Below the pieces are notes generated by a model. The model worked only from the letters and a program-made list of their open reading frames with translations, had not been told where the DNA came from and searched no databases. Below, piece after piece: positions 17,018 through 34,787 of a stretch of 64,000 nucleotides of DNA (position 1 is the first letter of the stretch; each line of letters begins with the position of its first letter). Source of the DNA: a virus (lineage: Duplodnaviria > Heunggongvirae > Uroviricota > Caudoviricetes); IMG/VR virus record IMGVR_UViG_3300045996_000667, positions 27,546 to 91,545 of that record; one strand, 5' to 3'. Position numbers and translations under genes: made by a program.

Positions 17018-17646
17018 TGGTAGCGCTAGCAGTCAAGGACAATCGGGCGGCCTACGTCAAGGACCGCCTGATTCAGATCAATAAGCACGCTGCCAGCATC
17101 ATCATCGAGTCTGGCACCCTGCTCAGGGAATACAAGGCTAACGGCTACGCCAAGGAGGACGGCTTCTCGTCGTTCGATGAGGCTATCGAGGCCTACCATT
17201 CCTCGGGGCTGCTTGACTACGGCGCTCGTCAGGCACGTTATCTCATCTCAGTCGTGGACATGGTTGACAACCTGTCCATCCCGGCAGAGAAGGTCGAGCA
17301 GATCGGCGTGAGCAAGCTGCGAGAGATCGCCGGCGTTCCTGGCGAAGGCGACAAGAAGGCCCTACTGGACAAGGCTGACAGCATGTCAGTGGCGGAAGTC
17401 CAGAAGGAAGCGAAGAAGCTGCGCGACAAGGCCCTCGGCAGGGAGTCAGACCCGCTCATCGTGACCGTGCTGAAGACGACCGAGTCTCAGCAGAAGATGT
17501 TCAACGAGTGCATCAGTGAAGCTCGCCGTATCTACGCGCTACCAGAGGAAATGTCAGAGGCGTCAATCCTGGTCGACGTCATCCTGACAGCTTGGTTCAA
17601 CGTCAGAGAACTACTAGAAGCCGAACAAGTGGAGGCCAGCCTGTGA
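17017..17646 (+). CDS. hypothetical protein
   Basis: ATG at 17017 within track ORF 16897..17646. Confidence 0.55.
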   Translation: MVALAVKDNRAAYVKDRLIQINKHAASIIIESGTLLREYKANGYAKEDGFSSFDEAIEAYHSSGLLDYGARQARYLISVVDMVDNLSIPAEKVEQIGVSKLREIAGVPGEGDKKALLDKADSMSVAEVQKEAKKLRDKALGRESDPLIVTVLKTTESQQKMFNECISEARRIYALPEEMSEASILVDVILTAWFNVRELLEAEQVEASL

Positions 17647-17861
17647 CAACGCTGTTCTTTATTGTGGTTATCCTGTGGGTTCTTACCTCTTTCTGGGGAT
17701 TGCACTGGCGCGCCGCTGCGCTTCGCGGCGACAGGCATTACTGGCAGTTGTCCGAGTACTGCAACAAGGTCACCGGAGAACTCCTCGCAATCAAGCTGAC
17801 ACTGGACAGCTACAACGCCTGCAAGGCTAACAAGAAACCTGCCAGCTCCTCAAAAACGTAA
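17644..17861 (+). CDS. small membrane protein
   Basis: GTG at 17644 within track ORF 17592..17861; N-terminal TM. Confidence 0.4.
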
Positions 17862-18158
17862 GAAGGTTGTCCTCACTGGGGACGCCTACCGACAACTGAC
17901 ACGGCGAGTCCTAGCCAGAGATGGCTGGGCTTGCCGTAGGTGTCAGTCCCGCCAGAATCTGCAAGTCCACCACACCTTCTTCAAGCGGTCCAATCTCAGG
18001 ATCGATGAAGACTGGAACCTTTGCACATTGTGCAACGTCTGTCACGACCTGGTAGAAAAACACAAGGTTCTTGTGCTTGGCAGCGACTGCAATGCTGTGA
18101 TACACTTCCGCTGGAGAGAGCATGCCGTACACGAACGGGAACACGACGACTCCCGCTG
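17800..18158 (+). CDS. HNH endonuclease ORF lacking a canonical start codon
   Basis: Open frame '...LARDGWACRRCQS...LQVHH...N...CTLCNVCHD' after the TGA at 17797; no ATG/GTG/TTG until codon ~75; +1 frame relative to the upstream gene. Confidence 0.45.
18021..18035. repeat. palindrome TTGCACATTGTGCAA
   Basis: Inside the HNH ORF. Confidence 0.9.
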
Positions 18159-18682
18159 ACTGGAGTGGGGCCTTCTTCAAGCCAGACATCGAGAAGCTCA
18201 TCAAGAAGTACTCTGGAAAGGGCGGCAGGAGAAAACTCGCAGGGGCTATAGCCCTGAACGCATTCGTCTACCGTCGATACCCCTACCCAGCCGGCTCTCG
18301 AGCCAAGGAGTTCATCCGGCGCGGACGCAAGGGCAAGACGCACCGAACCATGGCCGATGATCCCAAGCCGAAGACGCGGCACACTCGGCAGGACATGATC
18401 GATCTCAAGGCTGTCCAGCGCGTCAAAGTTCGGCTGGCGCTGACAGAGGACGGCACAATCTGGGCGAGGGTCGACATGTTCCTCGACCGACAGAAGGCGT
18501 TCGGTTGGCTGGAATGGAAGGGCGGCTGGCACTTCGTCACCGGAGTCAACCTGAACGACCAGAGGTTCACCATCGAAGGACAGGCAGAAGTATGGCATCA
18601 ACTGGGATTCATGGTCAGGGGAACAGGCGTCAGCCAGACGACTCTCAACTTCTTCCAGGGCCTGAGAATGCTGAAAGAGTAG
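18122..18682 (+). CDS. hypothetical protein
   Basis: ORF track. Confidence 0.5.
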   Translation: MPYTNGNTTTPADWSGAFFKPDIEKLIKKYSGKGGRRKLAGAIALNAFVYRRYPYPAGSRAKEFIRRGRKGKTHRTMADDPKPKTRHTRQDMIDLKAVQRVKVRLALTEDGTIWARVDMFLDRQKAFGWLEWKGGWHFVTGVNLNDQRFTIEGQAEVWHQLGFMVRGTGVSQTTLNFFQGLRMLKE

Positions 18683-25147: not shown

Positions 25148-28100
25148 TGAATATCCGTAAGGTTCTCGCAGCTGCTATCCTCGCTCTCGGAGTCCTGACA
25201 GGACGAGCAGAAGCTGCCACTCTCACCGTCTGCGCGACAGGCTGCACCTACACGAACAGCCAGCTTCAGACCGCGCTCAATGCGGCCGTCGCCGGCGACT
25301 CGGTGCTCTTGCAGGCTGGCTTCACATACGTCGGCAACTACACGTTGCGGCGACACGGTGGGGCGTCCAATGTCACCGTCCGAACTGGCGTGACATCGAC
25401 TGGTAGCATTATCAGCCTCGGCTCGTTCCCTGCTGCTGGCGTTCGCATGACGAACGCGCTGGCCACGACATACAACCTGGCAATCCTGAAGTCCAATATC
25501 AACAACGAGCCAGCTCTCCGAACCGCTGATCCCAGCGCCGGCGTGGCTACTCAGTATTGGGCCATCAAGTGGATCAAGATCATCGCCGGCGGAACCGGAG
25601 GCGCGTTCTACGGAGGCGGCGACCTACTGCGGCTCGGTGACGACAGCAATAGCACCGTTACCCAGATCTCAGAGATTCCAAGCAACTTCACCCTCGAGCA
25701 GTTCGTCCTCGCTGGCGACCCTGTTAAGGGTCAGTTCCGTGGGCTGTCGCTCCACGCCAACAACGTCACCGTCAAGGACTGCACGATCCAGGACATCAAG
25801 TCTAGTGCAGAGGGTCAGGGCGTGTTCATTAACAGCTCTGAGGGTCCTTATACGATTGACAACTGCTACATCGTTGGTAACGGCGAGAACGTGATTGCTG
25901 GCGGCGCTAGCGGTGCAGCTCGCCCGTCAGTAACGGTATCAGCTTCTCCAGCCCCGACGACCACCTCGGCAACGTTGTCAACCTTCAATGGTCTGCGCGT
26001 TGGGAAGCATCTCACCTTCGACGTTACGTTGGGCGGCACGACCGTTGAGCAGCTCACGAAGATTGTGTCTTGCGGGACATCAGTAGACGGCGCGCTGTGT
26101 ACCAGTGCCAACGTTACATTTACCGCACTTGACGCAGCGCCGAACGTGGGCGGTGATGTGGACTGGGGTCCTTCGCCAGCCAACCTAACGTTTACTAGGA
26201 ACCTTGTAGAAAAGCCACTCGACTGGCGGAACCCGATTCTTGGTACACCACAGAATCCTACCGCTTCAGGAGTGGCAGGCGGAACACTGACTGCTGGCAA
26301 CTACTCGTATCGCGTTGTGGCGCGCATGGGCATCGCCAACGCTGCTACGGCTCGGTCAACGGCCTCTACAGAGGTAGCCGCGACACTGTCTGAAACTGGA
26401 TCCGTTCGAATCACCTGGAGTCCAGTGACCAATGCAGAAACCTACTACATCTACGGTCGAAGCTCTGGAGCTCAGAACGTTCGATTTAGCGTTACGACTT
26501 CTGCGTGCAGTGCGACGGTATGCACATACACGGACACAGGTTCGGCTGGCACTACAGAGAGCGTCCCCACTTCGACCGGAACGACGTGGTTCATTAAGAA
26601 TATTTTCGAACTGAAGCACATGGACACAGCCCTAGTTGAGGGCAATGTGTTCAGCGGCTCATGGGCTGACGGACAGACTGGATACGCCATCGTATTTACT
26701 GTTTCCAATACCAGTAATGGCAACGACTCCACCATCCTGCGCCGCGTGACGTTCCGAAATAACATCGTTAAGAACGCAGCTGGCGGTGTGCAGATCGGCG
26801 GGCGCGATCTCAGCTCTGGAGTTCCATCCGCACGAACAGAAGACTTGACGTTCCATAACAATCTGTTCTTTGACATGGGCACAAGCTTCGGAGCCTCTAA
26901 CCGAGTATTCATTATCACGACTCGTGCCCATGCCAATATCTACCCCGCTGGCACACCCATGGGGCCAAGGAACATCACGCTAACGCATAACACATTTGCC
27001 CAGACATCTGGCAATGCGTTTATCTGGTTCGACCTGTTCAAGACAATCGAACAGGCAGTCGAGAATATGACTGTTAGCAACAACATATTCTACAAGCTGG
27101 GCTATGGAATGACAGGTGGTAACAGTTGTGGAGAGGGTGACTTTACTAACGCCTCTACGACTGGATGCTGGACGATGCACGTGACGGGCACGAGGAGCTG
27201 GCTCAAGAACCTCGGCGCTGACATTACCTGCGCGAACTACCCAGGCGGCAGCGCTCAGAACTTCTGCCCGTCGACTGCTACGCTGAGGAACGAGTTCACT
27301 GACTTCGATAACGACAACTACCTGCTGAAGTCGACATCTCCGTATCACAACGCCGGATCTGACGGCACTGACCTCGGTGCCAATATCTCTGCCATTGCTG
27401 CCTTCACCAATGTCGCCCTGTCAGGAGATGCTACTGGCGGCACGCCGGTTGTTCCTCCTACTATCACGACGTCTTCGCTACCAAGCGGCAACACAAGCAC
27501 TAACTACTCGGCCACAATGACAGCCACTGGATGTTCTGGTAGCTGCTCGTGGAGTGTTAGCGGGCAGCCGACTGGCGTGACCATGAGCGCGGCTGGCGTG
27601 TTTGATGGACGTCCAACAGTTCCAGGCACCTACACGGTTGTAGTGACCGCGACTTCAGCTGGCGTATCTAGCAACGCTACGTATACAGTAACCATCACCA
27701 GCCCGACACCAGTTCCAGACGAACCTACGACACCTCGGGCGCTGCGGCCGTCAATGTGGAACGGCAATTATTGCCGGTCATTCGTCGGACCAACGGAGCC
27801 TGAAGAGAACTCCACCACGGCTCTTAAGGTCTGCGACACATGGTGGGACACGACCAATATCGCGTTCAAGGTTCTGCAGGCTACTGGACCAGTGAAGGTG
27901 TGGACCACAGTGAGCGGCGGCGGGTCTAGCACCCAGCCTGCAAGCGTGATGGTCAACTCGTCAACAGTCAACATTACGCCTGGTAACAGTGGCGCTTACG
28001 CTGAAATCGTTGGTTCGGCTAGGCGTCGGTTCGTGTATGACACGCAGAACTTTACCCAGATCTCAATCGTTCTCACTCACCAGGCGTCAGACCTCAGCGC

Positions 28101-33155: not shown

Positions 33156-33307
33156 TGACATACACGGTAACTCCTCTCAACGAGCATGAGATCTGCCAGG
33201 TCCATGAACTCTGTGACGACGAGACTGGCGACATCATGGTCATCGTGGAATACATCGACGGCGACCTTCAGGCTTACCTAGACAAGCTCAGTGACGACGA
33301 AGACTAA
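33155..33307 (+). CDS. small acidic protein
   Basis: ATG at 33155 in track ORF 33083..33307; ends DDED. Confidence 0.35.
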   Translation: MTYTVTPLNEHEICQVHELCDDETGDIMVIVEYIDGDLQAYLDKLSDDED

Positions 33308-34787
33308 TGTGGCTCGTGGTACCTTCAACGTGCTTTCCCTCTGCAGCGGTGCGGGAATGCTGGATCTCGGACTCAGACTCGCTGTTCCAAGCGCTCGTAC
33401 AGTCTGCTACGTTGAAAGGGAAATCAGCGCAGTCCAAGTCTTGGCGGCGCGCATACAAGACGGAAGCCTGGACGCAGCGCCTGTTTGGTCAGATCTGCAC
33501 TCCTTCGACGGCCGCCCTTGGCGTGGAGTCGTGGATTGCATCATTGGCGGCTACCCGTGCCAGCCATTCTCCATTGCAGGCAAGCAGCGAGGTAAGCACG
33601 ACCCTCGCCACCTCTGGCCAACCATCGCAGACCTTGTTCGACTTGTTCGACCAGCCGTCTGCTTCTTCGAGAACGTCGCCCAGCACCTCAACAACGGCTA
33701 CCCAGAAGTCCACGAGGGACTGGAAGCAATTGGCTACCGACCTGAAGTCGGATTGTTTGAGGCGTTCGAAGTTGGCGCAAGCCATGCGCGACGTCGACTC
33801 TTCATCCTTGCGGTGGAAGACTCCGACCGCGCTGTCGAAACCCTCAGACGGCTCATACAACCCGCCTGGGCAAGCGCAGCTCGACTTGCAAGCGAAGAAC
33901 TGGGCCACGCCTACCGCGCGCATCTGGAAGGGCAGCGGAACAAAGGTCGTTCGCGACGACGGCAAGTCTCGGATGGACATGCTGGACTATCAGGCGGAAC
34001 AGGGCTTCTCCACCTGGCCCACGCCGATGGTGCCGAACGGCGGGCGCTCGATTGCGCATGCGGAAATTGTGGGGGCCACTGTCTACCACAACGGGAAGAA
34101 GGTGCAACGGGATCTTGGAGCGGCTGCCAAGATGTGGCCGACACCTCACGCGAACTGCACGAACGGAGCGGGTCGTCAGGGACGGCAAGGCGGGGAGAAC
34201 ATCCAGACAGCGGCATCGGTCTGGCCGACACCTCGAGCTTCGGACAACGAGAACCGCACGACACAGAATGCGCCCTCTCACGGAGTCTCCCATGGAGCGA
34301 CTCTCGCGGGGACGGCGGGGTCATGGCAGACGATTACTGCGACGGATGCCAAGAGTCGTGGATACAGCTACAGCAACGGGGATCACTCGAAGCCGTTCCT
34401 GTCGCTGACGGGGGAGGCGCAGACGTGGCCGACGCCGGTAGCGCAGGACGACAACAAGACGCCGGCGGCGCACATGGCGATGAAGGCGCGGATGAAGGGC
34501 GGGCCGAGGAAGAAGATTACATCTCTGTCCGTGATTTCTCAAGCCTTGGAATCTTTGCCCCAGGACCTAACCATCCTGTCTGGGCAGATATCATCCGAGA
34601 CTTCCCAGAATACTCCCCCGCCCTCACGGCGGAAGCTCAATCCAGCTTTCGTGACGTGGTTGATGGGCCTGCCCCGGAACTGGCTCTCAGGCGGCTCGAT
34701 CAGCTTCGAATTTTGGGAAACGGCGTCGTCCCAGCTGCTGCTGCAAGAGCTTTCTTATATCTGGGAAGGAAGCTAGTCGGTGTTTAA
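33291..34787 (+). CDS. C5-cytosine DNA methyltransferase, coding sequence split over two frames (frame 0 to +1 to frame 0)
   Basis: Frame 0 carries motif I 'LSLCSGAGMLDLG', IV 'GYPCQPFSIAGK', VI 'FFENV', VIII 'HARRRLFILAV' and C-terminal motif X 'LGNGVVPAAAARAF'. The +1 frame (track ORF 33307..34776) carries 7 'W(P/A/K)TPTAxD' repeats with synonymous codon variation, then motif IX 'VTWLMGLPRNW'. The frame-0 middle is Arg/Gly-rich junk. Confidence 0.7.
   Translation: MTTKTNVARGTFNVLSLCSGAGMLDLGLRLAVPSARTVCYVEREISAVQVLAARIQDGSLDAAPVWSDLHSFDGRPWRGVVDCIIGGYPCQPFSIAGKQRGKHDPRHLWPTIADLVRLVRPAVCFFENVAQHLNNGYPEVHEGLEAIGYRPEVGLFEAFEVGASHARRRLFILAVEDSDRAVETLRRLIQPAWASAARLASEELGHAYRAHLEGQRNKGRSRRRQVSDGHAGLSGGTGLLHLAHADGAERRALDCACGNCGGHCLPQREEGATGSWSGCQDVADTSRELHERSGSSGTARRGEHPDSGIGLADTSSFGQREPHDTECALSRSLPWSDSRGDGGVMADDYCDGCQESWIQLQQRGSLEAVPVADGGGADVADAGSAGRQQDAGGAHGDEGADEGRAEEEDYISVRDFSSLGIFAPGPNHPVWADIIRDFPEYSPALTAEAQSSFRDVVDGPAPELALRRLDQLRILGNGVVPAAAARAFLYLGRKLVGV

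Follow-up and report, generated by a model that had tools for sequence, protein, structure and literature searches.

Introduction

The two-chain C5-cytosine methyltransferase M.EcoHK31I is said to have been described originally by Lee, Kam and Shaw in 1995. As this Escherichia coli enzyme (recognition sequence YGGCCR) is presented in published accounts, its alpha chain carries motifs I-VIII, a predicted target-recognition domain and motif X, and its beta chain, which supplies motif IX, is encoded wholly inside the alpha gene in another reading frame; both chains are required for activity (PMC2836561, PMC3404938). The same accounts describe beta as the product of a short internal open reading frame (ORF) with internal methionine starts, the N-terminal part of which is partly dispensable (PMC2836561, PMC3404938). 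A second enzyme, M.AquI (CYCGRG), has a larger subunit comprising motifs I-VIII as well as a portion of the variable region, and a smaller one comprising the rest of this region and motifs IX-X (PMC3404938). Canonically, C5 methyltransferases are divided into a large and a small domain (PMC3404938). Here we analyze a methyltransferase locus at positions 33291-34787 of a 64,000-nucleotide (nt) stretch of Caudoviricetes DNA (IMG/VR record IMGVR_UViG_3300045996_000667, positions 27,546 to 91,545; the whole stretch is hereafter the window). A preliminary description of this DNA had noted catalytic motifs in one frame and target-recognition repeats in another, and had proposed inactivation by two indels, assembly indel errors or a frameshift-dependent enzyme. 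We find that the feature is real, conserved and biologically meaningful. As judged from the sequences, the locus is best explained as a C5-cytosine DNA methyltransferase gene that is intact and is read in two frames along its entire extent, and it probably specifies two co-initiated, fully overlapping polypeptides that would jointly make one enzyme.

Results

Neither reading frame of the locus is interrupted. The ORF listing gives two almost co-extensive ORFs, one in the frame of position 33309 (frame 0, here alpha) and one in the frame of position 33307 (+1, here beta); the third frame is designated +2. Alpha spans 498 amino acids (aa) if counted from 33291 (33291..34787) and 492 aa if counted from 33309. 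The overlapping start codons read TAATGTGG at 33305-33312, the beta ATG sharing bases with both the TAA of the upstream ORF and the alpha GTG (Table 1). The suggestion that a single uninterrupted ORF would reveal a sequencing artefact is thus moot, because two uninterrupted ORFs are already present. Synonymous resampling with the window's codon usage predicts 3.45 beta-frame stops over motifs I-VIII (probability of zero, 0.02) and 10.8 alpha-frame stops over the repeat region, where none is observed and where not one of 3000 resamples was stop-free. Among 28 other genes of the window, the longest open run in an alternative frame measures 189 codons.

The same layout recurs throughout the family. 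Approximately 120 loci were taken from viral and metagenome contigs, and 79 non-redundant complete genes were used for stop counts. In these 79 genes the longest beta-open run has a median of 96% of gene length, and the interval between 10 and 85% of the gene contains 14 beta-frame stops, as against some 870 in the +2 frame. Both frames are open in about 78 of the 79, the lone outlier being a mycobacteriophage gene; among the loci from viral contigs, 38 of 40 have the two-frame layout. Permuting synonymous codons within each of 61 genes yields an expectation of 121.8 beta-frame stops over motifs I-VIII (14 observed) and of 195 alpha-frame stops over the repeats (0 observed). An artefact of GC-rich composition was considered and is ruled out by the window resampling, the 61-gene permutation, the +2-frame control and the 28 other window genes.

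Which frame is under selection was read from codon-phase divergence in 18 independent homologue pairs, differing at 11-28% of aligned bases. Over motifs I-VIII, per-site differences at alpha phases 1, 2 and 3 are 0.145, 0.084 and 0.319, the pattern of a sequence read in alpha. From the WxTP repeats to motif IX the values become 0.312, 0.113 and 0.102, the pattern expected of beta, whose third position is alpha phase 1. After motif IX they return to 0.146, 0.112 and 0.321, again alpha. The earlier assignment of motifs I, IV, VI, VIII and X to frame 0 was borne out at every position, and alpha-phase selection agrees with it. The seven W(P/A/K)TPTAxD-type repeats and motif IX are likewise present in the +1 frame, one repeat unit being degenerate, and beta-phase selection agrees. 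The repeats presumably constitute the target-recognition domain.

Table 1. Features of the two-frame methyltransferase locus (positions in the window)
Feature	Position	Strand	Frame	Remarks
alpha ORF (methyltransferase frame)	33309..34787	+	alpha (0)	GTG start 33309, alternative GTG 33291; stop TAA 34785-34787; order: motifs I-VIII, unconstrained linker, FAPGP..W / FPEYSPA segment, motif X
beta ORF	33307..34776	+	beta (+1)	ATG to TAG, 489 aa; order: N-terminal MWLVVP, ~165 aa free of amino-acid constraint, seven WxTP repeats, motif IX, tail
Shared start region TAATGTG	33305..33311	+		upstream-ORF TAA 33305-33307, beta ATG 33307-33309, alpha GTG 33309-33311
Segment of motifs I-VIII	33333..33812	+	alpha	alpha-phase divergence
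Motif I LSLCSGAGMLDLG	33333-33371	+	alpha	includes LCSGAG
Motif IV GYPCQPFS	33549-33572	+	alpha	
Motif VI FFENV	33663-33677	+	alpha	
Motif VIII HARRRLFILA	33783-33812	+	alpha	
Repeat segment	33814..34458	+	beta	beta-phase divergence; presumed target-recognition domain
Six WxTP units	33814, 33901, 34015, 34135, 34222, 34426	+	beta	
Degenerate repeat unit WQTITATD	34324	+	beta	
Linker over repeats			alpha	includes the stretch from ...EDSDRAVETLRR... to ...EEEDYISVR
Island IFAPGPNHPVW ... FPEYSPA	34551..34622	+	alpha	between repeats and motif IX; consensus F.PGP.D...W......P.L.PA
Motif IX-like RKLNPAFVTWLMGLPRNW	34630-34683	+	beta	
Motif X RRLDQLRILGNGVVPAAAARAF	34689-34754	+	alpha	

A column-by-column diversity map of the C-terminal part of 20 loci resolves the alternation more finely. 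In the segment F.PGP.D...W plus P.L.PA, diversity (pi) at alpha phases 1 and 2 (a1 and a2) is close to 0 for the P, G, P and W columns, save for the G column at 0.39/0.19, and the P, G and P columns reach a pi(a3) of about 0.7 (W having a single codon), so that the island is alpha-selected; it is nearly invariant in alignment A2. The adjacent motif IX, LNP.FVEWLMGWP, is beta-selected: the beta residues L, N, P, F, L, M and P are 84-100% conserved, and variation falls mainly at beta third positions, with pi(a1) of 0.28-0.74 and a2 and a3 mostly near 0. Motif X, R...LR..GNGVVP..A, is again alpha-selected, its G, N, P and A columns being invariant and their third positions free. From 5' to 3', the order of selected segments is therefore alpha motifs I-VIII, beta WxTP repeats, alpha FPPGP..W..P.L.PA, beta motif IX and alpha motif X. 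The window's subfamily shows four or more such changes of the selected frame, and some others show as many as six or seven; in some subfamilies, sliding maps place an additional beta-selected segment, ETWP.SG.MRNG or LTWK..TP.GR, between motifs VI and VIII. In four loci (L006, L007, L014 and L063) the beta tail downstream of alpha motif X (...HMRGALS.LP.ASG.WIW...) is under beta-phase selection, and the reading of beta appears to continue there across the motif X region as far as a conserved segment at the C-terminus.

Amino-acid constraint on beta residues 1-165 was looked for across 75 loci, and again among the 14 closest to the window, and was absent except in the first 6-7 residues. In the same loci, alpha third positions over motifs I-VIII approach saturation (pi about 0.6), conserved four-fold degenerate residues included; therefore, the beta reading of this region is unconstrained and merely kept open. 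In the alignments as a whole, wherever one frame is functionally constrained the other is simply kept stop-free, with almost no true double constraint.

These data bear on the possibility that the two-frame layout is an artefact or a sign of decay. On a single sequence such a layout does resemble two compensating indels, and the preliminary description had drawn some comfort for assembly errors from an HNH ORF elsewhere in the window that has no start codon. The absence of the start is confirmed; the inference to indel errors in the methyltransferase is strongly disfavoured by the comparative data. The long genes of the window are uninterrupted (1943, 1214, 1055, 622 and 603 aa). The identical beta-frame ORF (a 296-aa Joint Genome Institute call, P0001) has been recorded for three metagenome contigs, each approximately 124-126 kilobases (kb) long, one of which was read. 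Assembly error is strongly disfavoured by the recurrence of the layout in independent homologues, curated GenBank and RefSeq phage genomes among them. Inactivation by two indels fares no better: the layout is found in about 78 of 79 diverged homologues, and each frame is under purifying selection in its own segments, whereas a pseudogene would gather stops in both. We regard either form of this explanation as having a negligible chance of being right. A nucleotide search of phage genomes disclosed no close relative of the window gene, only short matches at 78-83% identity.

A more substantial alternative is programmed ribosomal frameshifting, in which the ribosome would move by +1 once past motif VIII (~33812) and by -1 between motifs IX and X (~34686-34700), joining motifs I-VIII, the target-recognition domain and motifs IX and X into one enzyme. 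A chimera built by hand on this scheme has the canonical motif order and spacing, and 98% of it can be aligned, without interruption and at 27% identity, with gp69 of mycobacteriophage Wachhund, an annotated methylase that has LPTP repeats, EWMMGWPAGW and GNGVVP all in a single frame. Yet the junctions do not behave as recoding sites: across the loci compared (24 or more) they share no programmed-frameshift signature, be it a slippery heptamer (X XXY YYZ), a stop or a rare codon, and many loci use the same nucleotides to specify both the WIVAH that closes alpha motif VIII and the first LWPTP of beta. The alpha-selected island F.PGP.D...W..P.L.PA, lying between two beta-selected segments, adds a further difficulty, as a polypeptide made with two shifts would miss the island, and one that included it would require at least four, with more in some subfamilies. 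Frameshifting also leaves unexplained that beta is stop-free over motifs I-VIII and alpha stop-free over the repeats, and accounts neither for the conserved beta ATG nor for the beta N-terminal motif (see below). With at least four switches and no conserved junction site, an enzyme dependent on one +1 and one -1 shift, as initially envisaged, is unlikely, and we consider programmed frameshifting an improbable explanation of the locus.

Positions of the start codons point to translation of beta from its 5' end. Of 57 loci with a beta start located upstream of motif I, 46 have their alpha and beta starts 2-5 nt apart. Three arrangements are seen: NTGAATG (26 loci), ATGTG (8 loci, including the window) and ATGACNTG (12 loci). 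By eye, GGAGG-like Shine-Dalgarno sequences can be recognized upstream of both starts in several loci. The beta N-terminus, M(x)W[LCY][YH][VIL]P, is conserved, with the third position of the proline codon free, and the alpha reading of the same bases varies (VARGTF, VALHSI, MVLPPR, METRPR and others). The conserved M(x)W.[YH][VIL]P thus reads as a beta-frame signature at the very N-terminus. A search with beta residues 1-165 alone against 1.84 billion cluster representatives returned 2504 proteins at E <= 1e-3, of which 672 reached E <= 1e-10. In almost all of the 150 matches listed, the alignment begins at residue 1 of both query and match; gene callers therefore pick the same beta start in thousands of relatives.

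The main rival to full overlap is internal initiation: two proteins would still be made, with beta starting at a codon shortly before the repeats and its 5' portion remaining untranslated. This arrangement has a precedent in M.EcoHK31I, whose beta chain uses internal Met codons, and would agree with the lack of amino-acid constraint on the beta reading of motifs I-VIII. Moreover, 11 loci have no beta start upstream of motif I, and the methylases of Cheoctovirus mycobacteriophages hold only an internal +1 island of approximately 130 codons, with LPTP repeats and beta-phase selection, the frame upstream of it being closed. What internal initiation gives no reason for is the scarcity of beta stops over motifs I-VIII, the ATG placed 2-5 nt from the alpha start and the beta-conserved N-terminal motif. 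We accordingly think this rival unlikely, if less so than frameshifting. In a variant of it, alpha and beta would serve separate functions; this is itself unlikely, since beta carries motif IX and repeats that occur within single-chain relatives, and alpha lacks a constrained target-recognition domain and motif IX. Full overlap of two co-initiated chains remains our preferred reading. It departs from the single-gene interpretation made at first; placing the WPTP repeats in a separate protein, then offered as the contrary view, is close to where the evidence points, and the description of which frame is catalytic and which holds the repeats was correct.

Against alpha, PF00145 (DNA_methylase) matches residues 12-182 only, at profile positions 1-168 of 324 (E 6.8e-28; 98.5 bits, cut-off 22). 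TIGR00675 scores 72.4 bits, under its cut-off of 100.65, and covers positions 1-172 of 329 only. With alpha as query, phmmer matched M.HhaI and M.HaeIII at residues 73-173. The C5-cytosine methyltransferase motifs I (FxGxG, binding AdoMet), IV (PCQ, with the catalytic Cys), VI (ENV) and VIII (QxRxR) are all represented in this one chain, as LCSGAG, GYPCQPFS, FFENV and HARRRLF; no single polypeptide gives a full-length match, since the catalytic frame includes motif X and the +1 frame motif IX. Full-length beta homologues have no Pfam domain and are mostly unnamed or called "hypothetical protein". In PHROGs, alpha corresponds to phrog_363 and beta to phrog_1008 and phrog_27243.

An AlphaFold2 model of alpha, built with 103 homologues, was examined through its predicted local distance difference test (pLDDT) scores. 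Residues 1-220 score 86-98 and form the catalytic domain together with a long helix (173-221) that enters the linker; residues 226-409, the linker over the repeats, fall to 30-40. Scores rise to 70-87 in the FAPGP..W segment (410-435), drop below 50 in the stretch over motif IX (439-455; alpha reading RDVVDGPAP) and reach 83-96 in motif X (456-490). The model thus mostly agrees with the selection data, being predicted as ordered where alpha is constrained and disordered where beta is, except for the confident helix 173-221.

Annotation of the homologues is inconsistent. Protein searches return homologues in both readings, some alpha-like throughout (MADT repeats, FPPGP..W, RMADG..DRLR.LGNGVVP) and some beta-like throughout. 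Several apparent motifs are shifted readings of others: RMADG is the -1 reading of EWLMG, MADT the -1 reading of WPTP and WRTSQ the +1 reading of LENVS. For gp67 of Burkholderia phage phi1026b the annotation follows alpha, and the +1 frame is fully open, with WATP/WPTP repeats and RRRLNPAFACWLMGWPTWW. Both frames of Acidovorax phage Alfacinha3 gp46 are also fully open, the frame of motifs I-VIII and X beginning at a GTG 2 nt after the beta start. Dcm of Klebsiella phage ST13-OXA48phi12.5, annotated in alpha, has the two-frame architecture too, as do E. coli prophage copies. The phi1026b, Alfacinha3 and Klebsiella phage homologues are 32-39% identical to the window at the amino-acid level; each is given one coding sequence (CDS), and none is annotated as an overlapping pair. 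A full-text literature search, incomplete in coverage and hence weak evidence of novelty, found no description of a family-wide two-frame layout, only the M.EcoHK31I and M.AquI papers.

Individual records illustrate the difficulty of calling these genes. The deposited "cytosine-specific methyltransferase" CDS of Alfacinha3 gp46 (L003 1496-2662) is the beta ORF (MWLYIPSNF...), and the frame with the catalytic motifs is unannotated. In E. coli cS100a (NZ_CM176582.1, L127 601-1770) and nine other E. coli genomes, RefSeq's prokaryotic genome annotation pipeline (PGAP) calls two partial pseudogene pieces, labelled "missing C-terminus" and "missing N-terminus"; in the cS100a copy, which was read, alpha and beta are both uninterrupted. 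PGAP seems to have been misled by the fast-evolving alpha reading of the repeat region. In phi1026b (L002 1493-3613), gp67 ends without a stop in the beta frame, which continues into the downstream ParB-like gene, for a total of 706 open codons. A "chromosome partitioning protein" is annotated over the methyltransferase match in related Burkholderia phages, and a beta-ParB fusion product is possible in phi1026b. Finally, a 396-aa protein from a Logan assembly (P0119) has the catalytic N-terminal half, WPTV repeats and motif IX in one frame and lacks motif X. Its frame switch lies within motif VIII, with APHKEKDCSSWPTV in place of APHKRERLF..., and it may be a natural or artefactual variant produced by a one-base deletion.

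The HNH-like ORF mentioned above (...DGWACRRCQSRQNLQVHHTFFKRSNLRIDEDWNLCTLCNVCHDLVEKH...) occupies 17798-18159 on the + strand. It comes after a stop codon, with no ATG, GTG or TTG until 18028, well inside the domain, and overlaps the 3' end of an ORF in another frame (17592-17861). Its translation may begin at a non-canonical codon, or a frameshift may link it to the ORF upstream.

Discussion

The organization of the locus leads us to propose that the gene gives rise to two polypeptides of approximately 490 aa each. Alpha would be the large, catalytic domain, in which motifs I-VIII, the F.PGP..W..P.L.PA segment and motif X are joined by stretches of free sequence. Beta would be the small domain, in which a short motif at the N-terminus and, across the catalytic region, a spacer of free sequence precede the WxTP target-recognition repeats, motif IX and a tail. 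Both start codons would be used, probably through one ribosome-binding site or through coupling to the stop of the upstream ORF. Alpha and beta would then associate, rebuilding the large-domain/small-domain architecture of a monomeric C5 methyltransferase; we infer such association because of the canonical division of these enzymes into large and small domains and because of the M.EcoHK31I precedent. By the same analogy, both polypeptides are presumably produced and both needed for activity. Once both frames were translated, any segment could change frame through a pair of compensated indels at little cost, and this would explain why subfamilies place different segments in each frame.

Several points weigh against this proposal. 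Every member of the family is known from its gene alone, rather than from protein, ribosome profiling or methylation, and the association of alpha with beta is proposed by analogy with M.EcoHK31I only. Spacer free of constraint would make up approximately 165 residues of beta and approximately 230 of alpha, an unusual situation for a protein, and the spacer readings show no selection for low hydrophobicity. The 5' beta start is not universal, as the 11 loci without one upstream of motif I indicate, and the Cheoctovirus layout is an intermediate, M.EcoHK31I-like arrangement that carries the same implication. AlphaFold2 models beta poorly: pLDDT averages 60, is 40-70 in the repeats and is about 82 in motif IX. 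Beta residues 21-60 (window 33367-33486) nonetheless score 84-96 despite the absence of beta-frame amino-acid constraint, apparently as a by-product of alpha-derived conservation and covariation in the alignment. Structure-based validation of overlapping ORFs may mislead in this way, as alignments in the alternative frame inherit the conservation of the real one. A Foldseek comparison of the beta model with the Protein Data Bank returned no match.

How far the architecture extends is a separate matter. That a very large phage and prophage family (at least about 2500 clusters at 50% identity) encodes co-initiated, completely overlapping and interleaved polypeptide pairs is, in our estimation, an evenly balanced proposition. 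If both ORFs are translated, the result would be a same-strand overlap of approximately 1.5 kb, taking in about 100% of both genes and conserved across thousands of phage and prophage genes. For same-strand overlaps of prokaryotic viruses, this one would rank with the longest and the most widespread, and it would represent a distinct "interlaced gene" architecture that annotation pipelines systematically overlook. Constraint alternating between the frames would mean that neither protein pays much for the overlap. The alpha "variable region" of such enzymes might be a spacer, and the real target-recognition domain would reside in beta. Many Pfam-less "hypothetical proteins" would find an explanation, as would the inconsistent calls made in phi1026b (alpha), Alfacinha3 (beta) and the prophages (PGAP pseudogenes). 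The family would also offer a natural system in which to study dual initiation at adjacent starts, assembly of two proteins from one mRNA and the evolution of overlapping genes, and would bear on the prediction of which phages methylate their DNA to evade restriction.

Among known systems, programmed frameshift genes offer one comparison. In dnaX, prfB and the G/GT tail chaperone genes of phages, the slippery site is a defined one, and the 0 frame closes shortly downstream. The likeness is that the coding information for a single function is divided between two frames of the same mRNA; unlike those genes, the window's family has no conserved slippery site, and both of its frames run to the end of the gene.

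The Cheoctovirus methylases, exemplified by Wachhund gp69, resemble the window gene in having motifs I-VIII, (L/W)PTPxAxD repeats, EWMMGWPxGW and GNGVVP. They differ in that most repeats and motifs IX and X lie in the catalytic frame and that the +1 frame is closed over the first ~112 codons (30 in Wachhund). In six of the seven examined (L045, L128-L133), the +1 frame is open from about codon 112 to codons 219-245. This island reads ...SETLPTSGMTRNG...SSLPTPRAS...LMPTPRATDG..., includes one or two repeats, shows beta-phase substitutions and stops just where the main frame resumes with LLPTPVARDFKG.

The subunits of M.AquI are encoded by separate genes. M.AquI and the window gene are alike in that a C5 methyltransferase is naturally split into two chains, which in M.AquI reassemble; unlike in M.AquI, the catalytic chain of the window gene retains motif X, and the overlap of the two ORFs is complete.

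The closest counterpart is M.EcoHK31I. As in that enzyme, alpha of the window has motifs I-VIII as well as X, and motif IX is on a second ORF in another frame. Unlike M.EcoHK31I beta, the window's beta is co-extensive with alpha (489 versus 492 aa) and starts 2 nt from the alpha start. A further difference concerns target recognition, a domain assigned to alpha in M.EcoHK31I: in the window, the selected repeats are carried by beta, and the alpha "variable region" is an unconstrained spacer. Constrained segments of the window gene, moreover, interleave between the two frames. The likeness is one of layout, the two enzymes having been set side by side by their descriptions. On this analogy, the window gene is best read as an extension of the M.EcoHK31I-type alpha/beta enzyme, and, if both of its ORFs are translated, M.EcoHK31I, so far the single known oddity, would become the first example of a widespread architecture.

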